Notes: generated from the sequence alone by a model not told the origin. DNA of 64,000 bases from Deltaproteobacteria bacterium (GCA_026995935.1 JALWNK010000017.1:865-64864), one strand, 5' to 3'. Positions 45,618-54,020 are shown, counted from the stretch's first letter. Numbers and translations are program-made.

Positions 45618-45682
45618 TTAATAAGCAATGGATTTGTCTGATAACAAGAATTATATTTTATGTCAAGATGGAGGTTGACGCC

Positions 45683-46882
45683 ATGATACCCACAAGACTC
45701 ATAAAGAGAATCTTTGAGGCTGCAAGCATCCAGAGATGGAACGACCACGTGCGCCCAGTTGAGCTCACCGAGCTCGACAAACAGGCACACAAAATGCTCA
45801 TTGCCTACATGCTGGGAAGATTCCAGGAACCGGCCCAGGAGGTCAACTGGCCCCGCATAATAGAAGGTGGCCTTTTCGAATTCCTGCAAAGAGTAGTTCT
45901 AACTGACATAAAACCTCCTGTCTTTCATTACCTCATGAAAAAGGCGGGCAGGCAGCTTAACAGATACGTGCTTGAACAGGTCCAGGAAGAGCTTTCAGAT
46001 CTCACAAGCCTTGCAAGCGGCAGACCCATTATTGAGGAGATGGCGGCCTATCTTGAAAGGCCGGACTTTGCCGCCAGGGAAAAACGCATCCTCAGTGCAG
46101 CCCACTACCTTGCAACCAAGTGGGAGTTTGAGCTTGTCTATAATGCCTTTCCAAAGATGTATGGCATTGATGAAACTAAGAGGGAGATAGAGGACAAGAT
46201 AGAGGACTACTTTGAACTTCCAGGGGTTCAGAGGATCCTTCTTGGAGGAAAATCACACCATTTCGTGGACCTTTTAAGCCAGCTGCGCTTTCAGAAAAGG
46301 TGGTCAAAGACCCCGCGCATCCCCCAGACTACAGTGCTTGGCCACATGCTGGTGGTGGCCTTTTTTTCCTATCTGCTCACTCCTCTTAGAATAAAAAAGC
46401 CCTGTAAAAGGCGCATATACAACAACTTCTTCTCTGCGCTGTTCCATGACCTGCCTGAAGTCTACACCAGGGACATTATCTCCCCTGTTAAGAGAAAAGT
46501 GGCAGGTCTTGAGCAGGTTATCCTGGAGTATGAAAAGAAAAAGCTTGAGGAAAAGATACTCCCGCTACTTCCTGACTCGTGGCAGGAGGAACTCCTCTAC
46601 TTCCTGGAAGATCAGTTTGAAAACAGAATTGTCCAGGAGGGCAGAAAGAAAACAGTCAAGGAGATGAAAGAGGAGTGGAACAGGGATGAATTTCAGCCTG
46701 TTGACGGCACCCTGGTAAAGGTGGCCGATGAGATGGCAGCCTACTGGGAAGCGGCCATCTCCCTTTCGCACGGAATACGCTCTCCTCATTTGGAAGAGGC
46801 CATGGCAAGCCTTGAAAACAAGTATGGAAACCACAAGAGGCTTGCCCATGTGTTTTCCGCTACCAAAGACTACTCCTCGTAG
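45683..46882 (+). CDS. HD-domain metal-dependent phosphohydrolase family protein
   Basis: About 399 aa with H...HD pattern (TVLGHMLVV; SALFHDLPEVYTRDI). The N-terminal RIFEAASIQRWNDH segment resembles YfbR-type HD proteins. ATG 45683 is preceded by GGAGG. Confidence 0.7.
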   Translation: MIPTRLIKRIFEAASIQRWNDHVRPVELTELDKQAHKMLIAYMLGRFQEPAQEVNWPRIIEGGLFEFLQRVVLTDIKPPVFHYLMKKAGRQLNRYVLEQVQEELSDLTSLASGRPIIEEMAAYLERPDFAAREKRILSAAHYLATKWEFELVYNAFPKMYGIDETKREIEDKIEDYFELPGVQRILLGGKSHHFVDLLSQLRFQKRWSKTPRIPQTTVLGHMLVVAFFSYLLTPLRIKKPCKRRIYNNFFSALFHDLPEVYTRDIISPVKRKVAGLEQVILEYEKKKLEEKILPLLPDSWQEELLYFLEDQFENRIVQEGRKKTVKEMKEEWNRDEFQPVDGTLVKVADEMAAYWEAAISLSHGIRSPHLEEAMASLENKYGNHKRLAHVFSATKDYSS

Positions 46883-49014
46883 GTCTCTGCCTTTACCTTC
46901 CAAATCTGGAAAAGAGGGGTCTTTAACTCGACCGGGGAAAAGTAATTCTTGTTGAACTGGTGCCTCAAAAAGAGCTTATTAAAGACGGACTCGGCTATGT
47001 TCTCACTCATGAGGGCCGAATATCCTCCTTTTATTACCTCCATGTTATAGCCCCTTTCCCTGGAATACGTCCTCTTTTCCAGCCTGTCGGGATACCTTAT
47101 ATAAAGGGCCTTTAGGGAGACGACCTTTTGGCCCACAGCAGCCAGGCCCTTTTTTACGTCAACCCTTAAACCAGCTCCATTGCTATTTGTTGCCGTAATC
47201 ACGTCCTTACCAACCCTTGTGTTGTAAAAGGCAATGTAGGTTGGATGGATGCCATCGTGTGTTTTTGGATCCCAGGAACCCAGCCAGAACCACCAGTAAT
47301 TGGTAACCGTAAGGCGCCAATCAGTGAAAAGGTAGATGGGCCTTGTCTGTTTTGGGAAAAAGAACCTCAGCCAGTCTTCCACTGTCACAAGGCCTTTCTG
47401 GGGTTTAAGTCCTGCCGAGGCAATTATCCTTTCCGCGTTTACAGGGCCAGCTCCCAAAACCTCCTTTATGAGACGAAAACCCTTTGATATGTCGCCGCCG
47501 CAGGCCTTGTAGACAAGGTGGGTACCCTTGTTTATTCCCCTTTGGACAAAAAAATTCATGAGGTTGGCCGCTAGCCTTTCATTTTTTGTTGTGTAAGGAA
47601 TCCCGTTGAATACGGAGCGTTCCCCTCCGTGGACCTGCCCATCGTTTATGGTCGCCCGTTTAGCCCAGTAAATCATTGGATAGCCGTGGTCCCACCAGGC
47701 CCAGACAACGGAGTTTTCAGGGGTCTTTAAAGAGGCCTCAACCATGCCGTTTACAAGAAAAGGGGGTTCCTTGGGCCAGAAGGTCTTGTTAAGGTCTCGA
47801 TTGACAGATGGGTATATGAGAACAGCCACAATCAGTGCAACGAGCGTCCACCTTACCTGCTGATTTTTTACAGTGCGTTTCAAAAAGTAAAAGGACTCCA
47901 CAACTATGCATCCGATTCCTATGGCAAGGGTCGGGGCAAGAAATATCAAGAACCTTTTTGCAAAGAAGAAGGAGAGGCCGCTTAAGAGAATGGGAACCGC
48001 GAGGTAAAGGGCCTTTGTCCTCATCCTGTAAAAGAGGAAAAGCACACCTATTATGCCGGTAGCAAAGGCAAGGGTGCTGTCTGTTGTCTTGACAATGATC
48101 TCCTTAAGGGACGGAATGGCCTGTTCGGATATGGAAACACCAATGTTAGGGAAGGCCCCTGAGACCTCCTTGGAAATGTACTTGTATGTATTGACTACAT
48201 CCTGAACCGACTTTACAGGAAGTTCCATTCCCTTTAAAAAAAACACTCCGATGGCAGCTGCTGCCAACCCTCCCAGGAAGATAAGGCCTTCCCTTTTTTC
48301 CGGCCGGTAGAAAAAAACAATAGAAACCGCCATTGGCAAAAGCGCAATAACAGAGGCCACCTGGGGAGTCTGATCCCACCACCACAGGAAGAAAAGGTAG
48401 TTAAGGATTGCGCCAAGAAACCACAGGTACCTGGCCTTGTTCCTGGTCTCCCCGAATTTTATTGCAAAAAACACCGCTGCCATTGCGAAGGTAACATTCA
48501 TACAGTCCGTATCGAACCAGCCTAGACTGCTTCTGTATACGTAGTAAAATGACATAAGGGAAAAAAGCCCTGAGACGCAGGCCATTAAAGGGCCGCCATA
48601 AAAGCGCCCTATGCCGTAAACTGGCAGAAACAGCGCAAGTCCCAGAACAGCAGGAAGCACAGCGCCTAACCAGTTGAAGGATATGCCTGTTACCTGGTGA
48701 ACAGCAAAGGCAATGGAGGAGAGAAGCGGAGGAGGCTCAGGTCTGGGCGGGCAGTCTGGTACTGCCCGTTTCTCATCAATGGGCCTGTAGGTACCCTGGG
48801 CAAGGTCCCTGGCTAAGGTGAGATAATAATAGCCGTCAAAGGTGGTAAGAAGGGGCTCCCCCTTGTAAAGGGCCCTGTCCGGCTTGGCCTTCCAGTCCTG
48901 TATATCCTCCATCCTTACAAAGAAAGCGCAAGCAATGACCAGGATTACAAAAAAAATCTCTATCCATCTCTTATTAATGTCCAAAAGGGGCCTCCACTTT
49001 TCTTTTTCAGCCAA
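46870..49014 (-). CDS. STT3/PglB/AglB-family oligosaccharyltransferase
   Basis: 714 aa with about 13 TM helices and a periplasmic C-terminal domain. Catalytic motifs: first-loop TTFDGYYYLTLARDL (cf. PglB DGYxxxxxARD), GWFDTDCM (DxD), EL5-like GVSISEQ (SVSE/TIxE-type), and WAWWDHGYPM (the WWDYG motif). Confidence 0.85.
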   Translation of the reverse strand: MAEKEKWRPLLDINKRWIEIFFVILVIACAFFVRMEDIQDWKAKPDRALYKGEPLLTTFDGYYYLTLARDLAQGTYRPIDEKRAVPDCPPRPEPPPLLSSIAFAVHQVTGISFNWLGAVLPAVLGLALFLPVYGIGRFYGGPLMACVSGLFSLMSFYYVYRSSLGWFDTDCMNVTFAMAAVFFAIKFGETRNKARYLWFLGAILNYLFFLWWWDQTPQVASVIALLPMAVSIVFFYRPEKREGLIFLGGLAAAAIGVFFLKGMELPVKSVQDVVNTYKYISKEVSGAFPNIGVSISEQAIPSLKEIIVKTTDSTLAFATGIIGVLFLFYRMRTKALYLAVPILLSGLSFFFAKRFLIFLAPTLAIGIGCIVVESFYFLKRTVKNQQVRWTLVALIVAVLIYPSVNRDLNKTFWPKEPPFLVNGMVEASLKTPENSVVWAWWDHGYPMIYWAKRATINDGQVHGGERSVFNGIPYTTKNERLAANLMNFFVQRGINKGTHLVYKACGGDISKGFRLIKEVLGAGPVNAERIIASAGLKPQKGLVTVEDWLRFFFPKQTRPIYLFTDWRLTVTNYWWFWLGSWDPKTHDGIHPTYIAFYNTRVGKDVITATNSNGAGLRVDVKKGLAAVGQKVVSLKALYIRYPDRLEKRTYSRERGYNMEVIKGGYSALMSENIAESVFNKLFLRHQFNKNYFSPVELKTPLFQIWKVKAETYEE

Positions 49015-51928
49015 ACAGCCTATTCCAGGTCTCTAATACTCCTTTTCGTATGTCGTCAAGCTCTTCTAAAGGTACAACAGGCTTTTCCATATCAAGGGCC
49101 TTAAGATTTATAAGCTCCTGGTATCGACTGTGGGCATAGCGTAAACACTCGACATCACCTTTTGTAAGGTAGCCTGCTTCCCCAGTGGCCATTAAAATAC
49201 CCCGGGTATCCCTGCAATATGCAAGCCTTCTTTCTATACTTGCATGCCGTAAAACCAGATATTGGGCAATAAACTCTATATCCACAAGGCCTCCAGGTGA
49301 TTTTTTCAAGTGGAAAAGCCCTTCTCCACCCCTTTTAACGTGACTTTTTATAATCTTGCCCCGCATCTTGACTATTTCCTCTTTAAGCCTTTTGGGGTCC
49401 CGTTCCTGACGGATAACACAGGTCCTTATGGACTCGAACCGTCTTCCACAGTCCTTATCCCCACAGAGGAACCTTGCCCTGATGAGGGCCTGATGCTCCC
49501 ATGTCCATGCTTTTTTAAGCTGATATTCGTTAAAAGTGGAAACCGTACTCACCAAAATGCCCTGGGAACCGTTTGGTCTCAGCCTCGTATCAATCTCGTA
49601 GAGTACCCCTTGAGAAGTTCGGGCGGAAAGAAAAAAGAGGAGTCTTTGTATGAGCCTTGAGTAGAAATAGCCAAGCTCCCCCCTTTGGGCCTGGTTCAGG
49701 TGCCCAAATCTTTCCGGCTGGTAAAGGAATACCAGGTCAAGGTCTGAAGAGTAGGACAACTCCCTGCTGCCCAGCTTGCCATAGGCTATGACTGCCAGCC
49801 CGCTTTCCTGGATGGTCTCAGTCCCTTCTACGAAAGCAGGCCTTCTCTTGGCCATATCCTGCCAGGCCCCCCTGAAGGCCTCCTCCAGGATGACCTCGGC
49901 AAGGTTGGTCAGGGAGATGCCCACATTTTCCACCCCCATGATGCCCTTAAGCTGGGAAGCGGCAATGCGAAGTACCTGGGCCTTTTTAAAACGCCTGAGC
50001 TCATCCAGCCAATGCTCCAGGTCCTTTCTGGTAAGGGCCTCGATTGTGGCCAATAGCAACCTCTTAAGCCCCTCCTTATCAACCTCCCTGAAAAGAGAGT
50101 CTGTACTTACAAGCTCATCAAGCAGTATGGGCTGACGACGAAGGAGCTCTCCTATAAGTCTGCTTCTGCTACAAAGAAATACAAGATGCTCAAGGGCCTC
50201 AGGATTCTGATCAAGCAGCACAAGATAGATGCTCCTTTTTAGCACCGCCTCAAAGATAGAAAGGCCAAGTGTAAATGCCTTGTCAGGGTCAGTTGTGGAA
50301 GCACTTGCCAGAAGGAGATTTGGGACTAGCCTGTCAAGAAGCTCTTGTACCTGTCCTGGAAGGGATTTAACCTTTTTGGATTCTCTGAAATTGTAAATGA
50401 GCCTTGATGTTTCGCCAGGATTTGAAAAACCAAATCCTTCGAGGATGGACAGGGTGCGAGGGTCTTCAGGGGAAGACCAGACAAAAAGGGCCTCAGGCCT
50501 TGCCTGGTCCTTTTTACCGTCTTCCTGCTGGCCATCTTCCCCTTCTTCATGAAAAAGCCCCTGGAAAACCGAACGGGCATTTTTCGTATGTTGGTGATAG
50601 CTGTCAAGAAAATGGTCCCAGTCAGGATAACCAAGAGACAGGGCCAGCCTGTAGCGTCTTTCTCCGTCCCCTGGAAGGGTCTGCACCTGTCTGTCATGGT
50701 ACTCCTGGAGCCTGTTTTCCGTAACCCTGAGCCACACGTAGGCCTTTGCCAAGTCCCAGCAGGTTTCCTCTGACAAAAACCCGAGCCTCTTTATCACCTC
50801 AAGTGCATCAATCAGGGATTGGACCTGTAGGGCCTTTATTCTTCCGCCCTTAATGAGCTGGAAGGTCTGGACCACGAATTCTATGTCCCGGATCCCCCCT
50901 GGACCTAGCTTTACATTACTCGTACCCGCCTTTTCCGCCTGTTCGGCAACTATCATGGCCTTCATCTCTTTGAGGGACTCTATGGCTGAGTAGTCAATAT
51001 ACTTTCTGTAAACAAAGGGCCTAAGCTCACCAAGAAGCTGCCAGCCTCCTTCTACGTCCCCGGCAACGGGCCTGGCCTTAACCAGTGCATACCTTTCCCA
51101 CTGACGCCCCTGCCTCTCGTAGTACTCAAGCATCGCATCCATTGTCATGACAAGGGGCCCGGAATCACCAAAGGGCCTGAGCCGGGTGTCTACCCTGAAA
51201 ACAAAGCCCTCGGGCATGGGCCTTGAAAGAATGGCCATGAGCCTCTGGCACTGGTGGAGAAAGTATTCGTGATTGGAGATGCTTTTTCTGCCCCCGCTAG
51301 TGCATCCTTTGCCCCTGAACGCAAAGATGAGATCTATATCTGAAGAAAAATTGAGCTCACCAGCCCCAAGTTTTCCCATTCCAAGGACTATGAGACGTAA
51401 AATCTCCCCTTTTGAATCCTGTGGGAAGCCAAAATCTCTGGCCATCTGCCCTTCAAGCCATTTAATTACCGTTTCAAGGCATACGCATGCAAGGGTAGAA
51501 AGTTCTAGACAGGTTTCTGAAAAGGGGCTCAGTCCGCCCATATCCCTTATGGCAATCCTTAGCATAAGCATGTTTCGAAAAAGACGAATCCTTTTTGCAA
51601 ACTCTTCTTCTGACTGGACCTTAAGAAGCTCCGTATCGGCCATCTCCTTGATCTTTTCAGGGGGAAGGGAGGTATTTAGGAGGTTTTCGTCAAGAATCTG
51701 CCTTAAAAGGGCAGGCCTTCTTTGGATAAGAGTTTTGACAAACAGACTAAGGGGAATAACCGTGCCAAGAAGTTGTGAACATTGTGAAACCTTAGACACC
51801 GGGGCAACACCAAGGGATGGGGTTACCTCTTTGAGAGTCTTTTCCCCTTCCTCAACAAGCCTTTCTGGAAAGGATTCCAGGGAAGCAACACTCAGACTTT
51901 TGCTAAAGGAATCCAATTTTTCTTTCAT
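49007..51928 (-). CDS. glnE: Bifunctional glutamine synthetase adenylyltransferase/adenylyl-removing enzyme
   Basis: 973 aa with two nucleotidyltransferase modules (GMGKLGAGELNFSSDIDLIFAF and AYGKLGSRELSYSSDLDLVFLY), each followed by a GlnE-type helical domain. Confidence 0.92.
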   Translation of the reverse strand: MKEKLDSFSKSLSVASLESFPERLVEEGEKTLKEVTPSLGVAPVSKVSQCSQLLGTVIPLSLFVKTLIQRRPALLRQILDENLLNTSLPPEKIKEMADTELLKVQSEEEFAKRIRLFRNMLMLRIAIRDMGGLSPFSETCLELSTLACVCLETVIKWLEGQMARDFGFPQDSKGEILRLIVLGMGKLGAGELNFSSDIDLIFAFRGKGCTSGGRKSISNHEYFLHQCQRLMAILSRPMPEGFVFRVDTRLRPFGDSGPLVMTMDAMLEYYERQGRQWERYALVKARPVAGDVEGGWQLLGELRPFVYRKYIDYSAIESLKEMKAMIVAEQAEKAGTSNVKLGPGGIRDIEFVVQTFQLIKGGRIKALQVQSLIDALEVIKRLGFLSEETCWDLAKAYVWLRVTENRLQEYHDRQVQTLPGDGERRYRLALSLGYPDWDHFLDSYHQHTKNARSVFQGLFHEEGEDGQQEDGKKDQARPEALFVWSSPEDPRTLSILEGFGFSNPGETSRLIYNFRESKKVKSLPGQVQELLDRLVPNLLLASASTTDPDKAFTLGLSIFEAVLKRSIYLVLLDQNPEALEHLVFLCSRSRLIGELLRRQPILLDELVSTDSLFREVDKEGLKRLLLATIEALTRKDLEHWLDELRRFKKAQVLRIAASQLKGIMGVENVGISLTNLAEVILEEAFRGAWQDMAKRRPAFVEGTETIQESGLAVIAYGKLGSRELSYSSDLDLVFLYQPERFGHLNQAQRGELGYFYSRLIQRLLFFLSARTSQGVLYEIDTRLRPNGSQGILVSTVSTFNEYQLKKAWTWEHQALIRARFLCGDKDCGRRFESIRTCVIRQERDPKRLKEEIVKMRGKIIKSHVKRGGEGLFHLKKSPGGLVDIEFIAQYLVLRHASIERRLAYCRDTRGILMATGEAGYLTKGDVECLRYAHSRYQELINLKALDMEKPVVPLEELDDIRKGVLETWNRLFG

Positions 51929-52862: not shown

Positions 52863-54020
52863 TTATGTCTCCTCTGTATAGACGAGAAGAGCCTTTATGT
52901 CCTTCTCCTCTTCAAGATTTCCGCCAACAGCAGATGCAAGCACTCCAAAGGTTGCCATGAGCTTGGAAAAGTGAAATGCTGGAAGTGGCTTGCCTCCCAT
53001 GCCTGCCCATCCGGCCAACACGCTCTCTGGAAGAATGGCAATAATTAAATAGGATATGACAAAAAGGTTGATCCAAAAGGATATCATACCGACAAACAGT
53101 GTGGCGAAAAGGACAAATCGTGATCTCACCGCCTGTTCCTTCATTCTGTCACTTCTGCTTATAACGTGCAGATTTTGACCAAAATATATGGAAAGGATGG
53201 AGGCAAATATGACACATGCAAGCAGGAGATCGAGCCATCCAGATTTTATGGCTGCACCCATCTCCCAGGCCTCAGCACTCAGGAACAGAAATATCATAGA
53301 AACGGCAGTGGCCGCAATAAAACGTCCAAGATGAAACATCATGAGTACTGACCTGGAAACAAGCACATCTTTAAATATTGCAGGCCATTCCAAGGAGAGC
53401 ACCTTGAGATAGAATTTCCACTTGCTTTTTATAGGCGAGGCCTCCTCCACCCTTGGATCAGCGGCGTCCATGAGATGACGTAATATCTTTCTTTTTTCTT
53501 GAATGCTCCAGTCATGAGGTGGCTCACCGGTCCAGAACTTCCTCGGCCTCATTACTGACTCAAGACTGTGATCAAGACCCCAAAGATGCCCCAGGCAGTG
53601 TTTTACAAGGCTTACTAACGCCTTTTCCTGTCTTTCCCTGTCTTTCAGCTCAAGTATGCGTGCAAGGCTTATTACGGCAGTTTCAAGCATATTGGAGGGG
53701 ACTCCACTAACCCCTTGTTCAAAACGCGATTTAAGGGGAAAACTGGTAAGTACCAGCACATAATCAAAACCATATTCAATCTTGATATCAGAGCCAAACT
53801 CGAGAAGGTTTAGGGGATCAGGAGGGACACTTCTTGAAAAATCCTGTCTTTTAAGAATAGAAAATCTCCAAAGAAATTCTGGGAAGTTCTGCTCCATATT
53901 CTTTTTTAGCCATTTAACAACCCAATTGGCCCAAATACATGCAATCTCATCCTGGGCGTCAACCACCAAGCCCATGTTTATAAGTGCCTTCTCTTTGTTG
54001 CCATTTCCAAATGTATTCAT
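52863..54020 (-). CDS. Archaemetzincin-like domain (degenerate active site) fused to a C-terminal multi-TM domain
   Basis: 385 aa. The N-terminal ~190 aa ends in AVISLARIL...KHCLGHLWGLDHSLESVM, which parallels the archaemetzincin HExxHxxGLxHCxxxxCxM. Here Glu is replaced by Cys and the Cys ligands are lost. The C-terminal half has 4-5 hydrophobic helices. Confidence 0.55.
   Translation of the reverse strand: MNTFGNGNKEKALINMGLVVDAQDEIACIWANWVVKWLKKNMEQNFPEFLWRFSILKRQDFSRSVPPDPLNLLEFGSDIKIEYGFDYVLVLTSFPLKSRFEQGVSGVPSNMLETAVISLARILELKDRERQEKALVSLVKHCLGHLWGLDHSLESVMRPRKFWTGEPPHDWSIQEKRKILRHLMDAADPRVEEASPIKSKWKFYLKVLSLEWPAIFKDVLVSRSVLMMFHLGRFIAATAVSMIFLFLSAEAWEMGAAIKSGWLDLLLACVIFASILSIYFGQNLHVISRSDRMKEQAVRSRFVLFATLFVGMISFWINLFVISYLIIAILPESVLAGWAGMGGKPLPAFHFSKLMATFGVLASAVGGNLEEEKDIKALLVYTEET

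Follow-up and report, generated by a model that had tools for sequence, protein, structure and literature searches.

A separate clade of PglB-type oligosaccharyltransferases in Thermodesulfobacteriota with a WWDHG motif, and a member encoded apart from its likely glycan-assembly genes

Bacterial single-subunit oligosaccharyltransferases (OTases) are workhorses of glyco-engineering, with uses in conjugate vaccines and glycosylated antibodies. Among the closest described systems is PglB of Campylobacter lari and C. jejuni (glycosyltransferase family GT66; PDB 3RCE, 5OGL, and 6GXC), a single-subunit enzyme of about 710 aa encoded in a pgl locus together with the initiator PglC, the family GT4 glycosyltransferases PglA, PglH, and PglJ, and the flippase PglK. 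In the euryarchaea Haloferax volcanii and Methanococcus voltae, the STT3-family OTase AglB is coupled to a DPM1-like glycosyltransferase of family GT2 (AglJ or AglK), which loads the first sugar on polyprenyl monophosphate. Bacterial PglB homologues are already known outside Campylobacterota, as noted in the initial annotation of the locus described here: those of Desulfovibrio gigas, D. marinus, and D. desulfuricans are 15–20% identical to Campylobacter PglB, deviate from it in their motifs (WWDWG, DGGR, NL in place of DK/MI, and SVIE/SIIE), and are experimentally active with relaxed specificity at the −2 position (PMC4894442, PMC12229607). Their "eukaryote-like" mixture of motifs has likewise been described (PMC12229607). 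In Helicobacter pullorum, the pglB genes PglB1 and PglB2 are reported to lie away from the glycan-assembly genes (PMC6025236), so that an OTase encoded by itself has a precedent; unlike the enzyme considered below, the H. pullorum PglB belongs to the Campylobacterota lineage with the standard WWDYG motif. Here we analyze an OTase gene in a stretch of 64,000 nucleotides from Deltaproteobacteria bacterium (GCA_026995935.1, JALWNK010000017.1:865-64864; hereafter the window, from whose first letter positions are counted). From sequence comparison and structural modelling, we consider its product to be, in all probability, a single-subunit N-OTase of the PglB type with an intact catalytic apparatus, the donor of which is built by genes located elsewhere in the genome.

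The 714-codon open reading frame (ORF) occupies positions 46870..49014 on the minus strand, according to the ORF call and its translation, a strand that the initial annotation had left unstated. The encoded protein matched the Pfam families STT3 (PF02516; 46.2 bits versus a cut-off of 24.5, residues 51–379) and STT3-PglB_core (PF21436; 40.3 bits versus 23, residues 434–491) above their gathering thresholds. In a single-sequence search of PDB sequences, only C. lari and C. jejuni PglB were matched (E 3e-15); identity to Campylobacter PglB is only 16–18%. A profile built from a family alignment of 120 sequences (40–98% identity), which was also used for structure prediction with AlphaFold2, recovered PglB with 152 bits (E 1e-43) and eukaryotic STT3A with about 16 bits; chains of archaeal AglB in the PDB gave no match at E values up to 10. 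The AlphaFold2 model (pLDDT 95.5, pTM 0.92) predicts a GT-C fold comprising a polytopic N-terminal membrane domain of about 410 residues plus a soluble, periplasmic C-terminal domain of mixed alpha/beta structure. Foldseek comparison of this model with the PDB yielded a TM-score of 0.76 in both directions for whole-chain PglB (E 4e-27) and 0.45–0.62 (E ~1e-11) for human and yeast STT3 and A. fulgidus AglB (AfAglB), the latter alone spanning 0.45–0.54. The top 21 matches were all PglB, STT3, or AglB, followed by DPY19 (E 3e-5), ALG, ArnT (E 1e-3), and the still weaker protein O-mannosyltransferases (PMTs). Kinship with ArnT/PMT-type GT-C enzymes, the alternative placement considered in the initial annotation, is ruled out by these values (E 1e-3 or weaker versus 4e-27), and the window protein is clearly an STT3/GT66 OTase, more similar to PglB than to AglB or STT3. 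In NCBIfam, the protein scored 84.3 bits to the equivalog model of Campylobacter PglB (NF050801; cut-off 1300) and 17.6 bits to archaeo_STT3 (TIGR04154; cut-off 450).

All four motifs by which the gene had originally been recognized are present in the translation, and the phmmer and profile alignments to C. lari PglB (ClPglB), from which we took the residue equivalences, place them, together with further segments on the same minus strand, on known functional positions. The sequence DGYYYLTLARD in external loop 1 (EL1; residues 60–70, 48805..48837) aligns with TNDGYAF, so that D60 corresponds to ClPglB D56, a catalytic residue that binds the metal and the acceptor amide. GWFDTDCM (residues 165–172, 48499..48522) aligns with GYYDTDML, equating D168 and D170 with the DxD pair D154/D156, and GVSISEQ in EL5 (residues 292–298, 48121..48141) aligns with NETIMEV, equating E297 with E319 of the TIXE motif. 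The triplet K353-R354-F355 (47950..47958) aligns with LRFTIY and thereby brings R354 onto R375, a ligand of the lipid phosphate. WAWWDHGYPM (residues 438–447, 47674..47703) lies column for column on VAWWDYGYPI in both alignments and thus represents the WWDxG motif, which forms the Ser/Thr(+2)-binding pocket; the correctness of this very alignment had been in question. Downstream of it, NDGQVHGGER (47617..47646) aligns with IDGGKHLGKD and provides a DGxxH counterpart of the DGGK motif. Residues D60, D168, D170, E297, R354, F355, W441, G444, D458, G459, and H462 are invariant in the 120 homologues, as expected of an active enzyme under selection, so that the full catalytic set ascribed to the protein is borne out by profile matches, alignment, and conservation alike. 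K309 (48088..48090) aligns, in the profile alignment, with ClPglB R331, which contacts the −2 Asp of the sequon. The family column at this position is variable (K59, Y13, I12, R10, L9, A7), and the −2 preference may therefore differ within the clade.

Two features of these motifs had been read as peculiar, and the family alignment recasts both; it also bears on the DK/MI position. The histidine of WWDHG had been described as a replacement of tyrosine; it is the clade consensus, the motif being present in 101 of 121 homologues (alignment columns of 120: W441 120, D442 117, H443 101, G444 120), which rules out a lineage-specific mutation or a sequencing oddity, and the literature in any case writes the OTase motif as WWDXG (PMC12229607). 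In EL5, the family columns (T71/S43, I104/V16, S114, E, Q114) spell the consensus TISE, of which the window SISE is a T-to-S variant. Since the literature reserves SVXE for eukaryotes and gives TIXE as the form of archaea as well as bacteria (PMC12229607), a canonical TIxE consensus leaves no ground for the suggested closeness to an archaeal/eukaryotic SVSE form. Finally, RLTVTNYWWF (L568-x-x-T571-x-x-x-W575; 47287..47316, minus strand) aligns with ClPglB RMLRIMPVV (M569, I572, V576) over a stretch worth only 16.8 bits. The corresponding family columns (L115/M5, T100/I12/L5, W120) contain no D..K motif in the 120-sequence alignment. Classification of the DK/MI position, which had been proposed as a check, thus suggests, within the limits of the 16.8-bit alignment, an MI-type spacing, MxxIxxx(I/V/W), with both name-giving residues substituted in the window protein.

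The few named homologues are Thermodesulfobacteriota, namely, Dissulfuribacter thermophilus, Dissulfurirhabdus thermomarina, and members of Desulfurivibrionaceae, Thermodesulfobacteriaceae, and Desulfobia. In the GTDB species representatives scanned, a relative is present in at least 166 species genomes, nearly all of them Thermodesulfobacteriota metagenome-assembled genomes (MAGs) from vents, seeps, and groundwater, with a few labelled Gammaproteobacteria. In an evenly drawn sample of 301 genomes of the phylum, an STT3 match above the Pfam cut-off was found in 54 and an OTase of the window type in 20; besides the window genome, the sample included 9 genomes from its order, 8 of which carry the latter. 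Dissulfuribacter (G032) and Dissulfurirhabdus (G170) belong to this order as well. The STT3 sequences of the phylum fall into at least 3 motif classes, WWDHG/(T/S)ISE/DGxxH, WWDYG/SISE/DGGSQ, and WWDWG/SIIE, the last of which matches the published motifs of Desulfovibrio PglB (PMC12229607). In a maximum-likelihood tree restricted to bacterial sequences, with ClPglB reconstructed from a printed alignment, the WWDHG sequences are monophyletic (support 99/99) and have the WWDYG/DGGSQ clade as their sister (95/66), whereas the WWDWG clade groups elsewhere, with ClPglB (96/82), in a union of long branches that should not be over-read. The placement indicates that the window OTase, although from the same phylum as the Desulfovibrio enzymes and similarly divergent from Campylobacter PglB, is neither a Campylobacter-type nor a Desulfovibrio-type PglB but belongs to a third clade, one of sulfur-cycling bacteria, the hallmarks of which, as read from the alignments, are WWDHG, (T/S)ISEQ, DGxxH, and LxxTxxxW. 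The window protein shares with Campylobacter PglB the single-subunit form, the size, the fold, the aligned catalytic positions, and, as far as the 16.8-bit alignment suggests, the MI-type spacing, and differs from it in carrying WWDHG instead of WWDYG, DGxxH instead of DGGKH, LxxTxxxW instead of MxxIxxxV, and K instead of R at the position of R331. A search of the searchable literature returned nothing relevant on the WWDHG motif or on OTases of Thermodesulfobacteria.

Two relatives deserve separate mention. A copy in a genome of the same order (G287:C13:16660-18759; locus L103) reads WWDLG where WWDHG is usual, and its six-frame match contains a single in-frame TGA; it could be either a decaying copy or the product of a sequencing error. 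A MAG deposited as "archaeon isolate JL_RS_05_5" (G301, locus L052) contains a glnE-OTase contig that is 54–55% identical to the window protein; this Desulfobacterota-like gene is its only STT3 gene, the MAG being probably a mislabelled bacterium or the contig a mis-binned one.

Unlike Campylobacter pglB, the window gene does not reside in a pgl locus: no N-glycan assembly genes are present within about 8 kb of it. Directly upstream lies glnE, encoding glutamine synthetase adenylyltransferase (49007..51928, minus strand; Pfam GlnE and NF008292, 957 bits), and on the other side a convergent gene for an HD_3/YfbR-like hydrolase (45668..46882, plus strand; Pfam HD_3), the 3′ end of which overlaps that of the OTase gene by 13 nt, followed by thrS-infC-rplT-pheST. 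Both immediate neighbours are as originally named. The order glnE-OTase-HD-thrS without a glycosyltransferase (GT) gene is common to all 12 loci with at least 61% OTase identity (61–94%). In the next clade out (about 49–54% identity), glnE is again found upstream, and the place held in the window by the HD hydrolase gene is taken by a GT2 gene directly after the OTase gene, often followed by a GT4 gene (for example, L029, L032, L033, L037-L039, and L041). The arrangement is seen in the window clade and the sister clade alike (loci L015-L042), with a glnE identity of 39–41% in the latter, and glnE is located no more than 500 bp upstream of the OTase gene in 24 of 89 loci, the GT2-bearing loci of the sister clades included, indicating that the glnE-OTase adjacency is older than the loss of the GT genes. 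More elaborate arrangements are seen in Dissulfuribacter (OTase-GT2-GT4-GT2-GT2-GT10) and in locus L009 (OTase-APS kinase-GT2-GT4-AsnB-GT4-...-sulfotransferase-Wzx). A GT2 gene lies within 800 bp of the OTase gene in 40 of the 68 loci for which both flanks are informative, and in 40 of 55 outside the window clade. Because the sister clades retain glnE together with adjacent GT2 and GT4 genes, the parsimonious reading of these gene orders is that the window lineage lost the GT genes from an ancestral glnE-OTase-GT2(-GT4...) locus. The description of the OTase as "lone" therefore holds for its immediate surroundings and fails for the system as a whole, given the adjacent GT2 and GT4 genes of the sister clades and their orthologues on other contigs of the window genome. 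The APS kinase and sulfotransferase genes within the OTase-linked cluster of L009 (12116-12655 and 19441-20367) hint that the glycan transferred in that organism is sulfated.

The OTase-adjacent GT2s fall into 2 types, A and B, which are not orthologous: identity is about 35% between the types and 60–86% within each. Type A has an orthologue in the window genome (C62:58565-59413; 73–75% identity), and type B, which occurs in Dissulfuribacter and L009, has none there. The GT4s adjacent to the OTase in L005 and L009 find their best full-length matches in the window genome (42–46%) in a cluster of seven genes on contig C67, four for GT4s and one each for an AsnB-type amidotransferase, a methyltransferase, and a flippase of the MurJ/Wzx superfamily; one of these GT4s scores best to PglJ/PglH. 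Its limit at one end is set by nrdDG, and no initiator was found within it. An extension past the flippase gene at the other end was ruled out, the next genes there being metH-like and molybdopterin oxidoreductase genes. In all, STT3 and Bac_transf are each represented in the window genome by a single gene (the latter on C48), PF00953 by two (C26 and C71), and GT4 by 14. The genome-wide search for GTs and flippases advised in the initial annotation returns candidates on C62 and C67 and none at the OTase locus. A genome of the same genus (G259) shows the same split between OTase and GT2; both of its genes are intact once read-through artefacts of the six-frame search are set aside. Of the two PF00953 (MraY/WecA-family) genes, that on C26 is MraY-sized (359 aa), and the second (G000:C71:25584-26021) lies in an open frame of 644 codons, which makes it, judging from its sequence, a putative initiator of the WecA kind that carries an additional domain. 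Genes for an LPG_synthase_TM-family membrane protein and a NAD-dependent epimerase/dehydratase (L013:3181-5218, equivalent to G000:C62:53181-55218) lie about 3 kb away from the gene for the type-A GT2, and these families could relate to the lipid-linked sugar of the GT2.

Taken together, these data make the following scheme likely. In the membrane domain, D60, D168/D170, and E297 would form the metal and acceptor site, with R354 binding the lipid phosphate, and the C-terminal WWD(H)G pocket and a putative MI-type helix would recognize the Ser/Thr at +2 in N-x-S/T sequons. The lipid-linked glycan would be flipped to the periplasmic face and transferred to Asn of exported or envelope proteins. 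The likely partners of the OTase are the AglJ/ArnC/DPM1-class GT2 on C62 and the C67 cluster. The donor may be a conventional glycan linked to undecaprenyl diphosphate (Und-PP), with the C48 or the C71 enzyme as its initiator and the C67 cluster for its assembly; alternatively, it may be an archaeal-style sugar or glycan linked to undecaprenyl monophosphate (Und-P) and initiated by the AglJ-like GT2. Several observations weigh against this scheme or parts of it. The score to NF050801, far below its cut-off, shows the protein to be homologous but not orthologous to Campylobacter PglB. Across the family, V, I, L, or F stands where DGGK has its Lys, the next His being invariant, and the Ile of the MI motif is Thr in the window protein. 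The C67 cluster could equally make an O-antigen or an exopolysaccharide; the type-A GT2 gene, being present also in 17 genomes that lack the OTase, is not an exclusive partner; and its statistical association with the OTase, detailed below, carries no correction for phylogeny. Biochemical or glycoproteomic evidence for the WWDHG clade, including an activity test of any of its members, was not found in the searchable literature.

Of the two donor options, the archaeal-style one, in which the OTase uses a polyprenyl monophosphate donor started by an AglJ/DPM1-class GT2 instead of an Und-PP donor initiated by PglC or WecA, is a variant of the scheme above that we regard as a possibility on the doubtful side. 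Both GT2 types have the AglJ model TIGR04182 as their best full-length NCBIfam match, followed by PpgS, the halophile Dol-P-hexose transferase, and ArnC, and their best PDB matches are ArnC and P. furiosus DPMS. Each consists of a GT-A domain and two C-terminal hydrophobic helices; in the C62 protein, which scored 123 bits to Pfam Glycos_transf_2 and 133 bits, over its full length, to the AglJ model, the hydrophobic segments span residues 236–272 and 278–304. These similarities and the C-terminal helices place the GT2s in the polyprenyl monophosphate (Pol-P) GT class, but AglJ orthology is not reached, the scores to TIGR04182 (80–148 bits) being all below the equivalog cut-off of 325. Initiators of the conventional kind are nearly absent from the neighbourhood of the OTase: across 89 loci (1.03 Mb), a PglC/WbaP-type (Bac_transf) gene was found once and a WecA/MraY-type gene never, as against the 40 of 68 informative loci with a nearby GT2, and the C67 cluster lacks an initiator of its own. 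With presence defined as at least 53% identity, the type-A GT2 gene occurs in 15 of the 20 genomes with a WWDHG OTase and in 17 of the 281 without one (odds ratio 47, Fisher p 8e-13, uncorrected for phylogeny), and adjoins the OTase gene in 10 of the 15 co-occurring genomes. In the phylum sample, the GT2 pairing is seen in 12 of 15 WWDHG-clade loci versus 0 of 12 loci of the other two OTase lineages, for which the flanks extend over only about 1–1.5 kb; within these short flanks, the WWDWG loci, unlike those of the WWDHG clade, showed no GT2 of the AglJ-like kind. As far as gene order goes, synteny favours a direct functional tie between the OTase and a Pol-P GT2.

The parallel with the euryarchaeal AglB-AglJ/AglK systems lies in this coupling of an STT3-family OTase to a DPM1-like GT2. 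It differs from them in that the OTase is PglB-like in sequence and fold, the GT2 stays below the AglJ cut-off, the carrier would be undecaprenyl and not dolichyl, and the coupling is read from synteny and co-occurrence only. Pol-P GT2s, including GtrB, ArnC, and AglD, also make donors for periplasmic decoration, a role unrelated to N-glycan initiation, and the Bac_transf phosphoglycosyl transferase on C48 and the second PF00953 gene on C71 could initiate an Und-PP-linked glycan. The invariance of R354, which corresponds to the pyrophosphate-binding R375, gives no means of telling a monophosphate donor from a diphosphate one. Bacterial STT3 genes are thought to derive from Euryarchaeota (PMC4973528), which makes a joint transfer of an AglJ-like gene conceivable. 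Tentatively, then, the full monophosphate route would run from loading of Und-P by the GT2, through extension by GT4s (or none) and flipping by a Wzx/MurJ protein, to transfer by the OTase, with OTase and GT2 perhaps co-acquired from Euryarchaeota.

PglB releases free oligosaccharides as a side reaction, and one could imagine that the window OTase, whose locus is devoid of GT genes across its clade and whose genome has no orthologue of the type-B GT2, has been orphaned or repurposed, hydrolyzing lipid-linked glycans, acting on a non-protein acceptor, or decaying, with no protein N-glycosylation. We consider this unlikely: the ORF is intact and its arrangement is kept in 12 genomes at 61–94% identity, all catalytic and WWD-pocket residues are retained, orthologues of the type-A GT2 and of the GT4s are preserved elsewhere in the genome at high identity, and the same split recurs with both genes intact (bar six-frame artefacts) in the congeneric G259. 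Highly implausible is the proposal, made in the initial annotation on account of the mixed motifs, that the lineage is evolutionarily intermediate between PglB and AglB: the first residue of SISE does depart from TIxE, neither the Lys of DGGK nor the Ile of MI is conserved, and the catalytic region of Desulfovibrio PglB has been described as more similar to eukaryotic/archaeal oligosaccharyltransferases (PMC12229607), but the family EL5 consensus is a TIxE, the DK/MI position (in its 16.8-bit alignment) appears to have the MI-type spacing, with M or I kept in some members and no D..K, and the profile scores (PglB 152 versus STT3 about 16 bits, no AglB; NCBIfam PglB 84 versus archaeo_STT3 17.6 bits) and TM-scores (0.76 to PglB versus 0.45–0.54 to AfAglB) all fall on the PglB side, a case that consists of profile and fold scores and a bacteria-only tree and does not amount to a formal phylogenetic rejection.

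The gene itself thus appears, from its sequence, to be an ordinary, well-conserved, and probably active member of a known enzyme family. What is modestly new is that it represents a separate, large clade with its own motif signature and a consistent pairing with a Pol-P GT2 rather than with a phosphoglycosyl transferase. Natural OTase variants with other sequon or donor preferences are being actively prospected (PMC4894442, PMC12229607), and this third Desulfobacterota OTase clade was apparently not sampled in those screens. Its members differ at residues that line the acceptor pocket (the H of WWDxG, a T where MI has Ile, and the variable R331 position) as well as at the DGGK Lys. If the donor were indeed a monophosphate made through an AglJ-like GT2, the euryarchaeal route would for the first time have an example among bacteria, with implications for the passage of N-glycosylation from archaea into bacteria.

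The translation start of the OTase gene probably lies downstream of the annotated one. The start codon of the annotation, TTG at 49014, overlaps the stop codon of glnE (TGA, 49009-49007), and a second in-frame TTG (48984-48982) sits ten codons into the ORF. Read from the sequence, a GGAGG Shine-Dalgarno motif (48991..48995, minus strand) is located 6 nt before this second TTG; a 98% identical homologue (P0002) is 704 aa long; and residues 1–11 are the only disordered part of the AlphaFold2 model (pLDDT < 50). On these three grounds, the true product is probably a protein of 704 aa, and not 714 aa, starting at TTG 48984. Counted from there, the gap between glnE and the OTase gene is 22 nt, suggesting possible co-transcription; we found no functional rationale for the adjacency and treat it as retained synteny.

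The GTs of the window nearest to the OTase gene are two GT9 heptosyltransferases, encoded together with a PfkB-family kinase at 56.8–60.9 kb; this is chemistry of the lipopolysaccharide core type and not N-glycan assembly. Between a K+ channel gene and a yfdX-like gene, the window contains a 385-aa ORF (52863-54020, minus strand) with no Pfam match, for which the only similarity was a weak one to archaemetzincin (NF033823; 20.8 bits versus a cut-off of 145) over residues 101–152.

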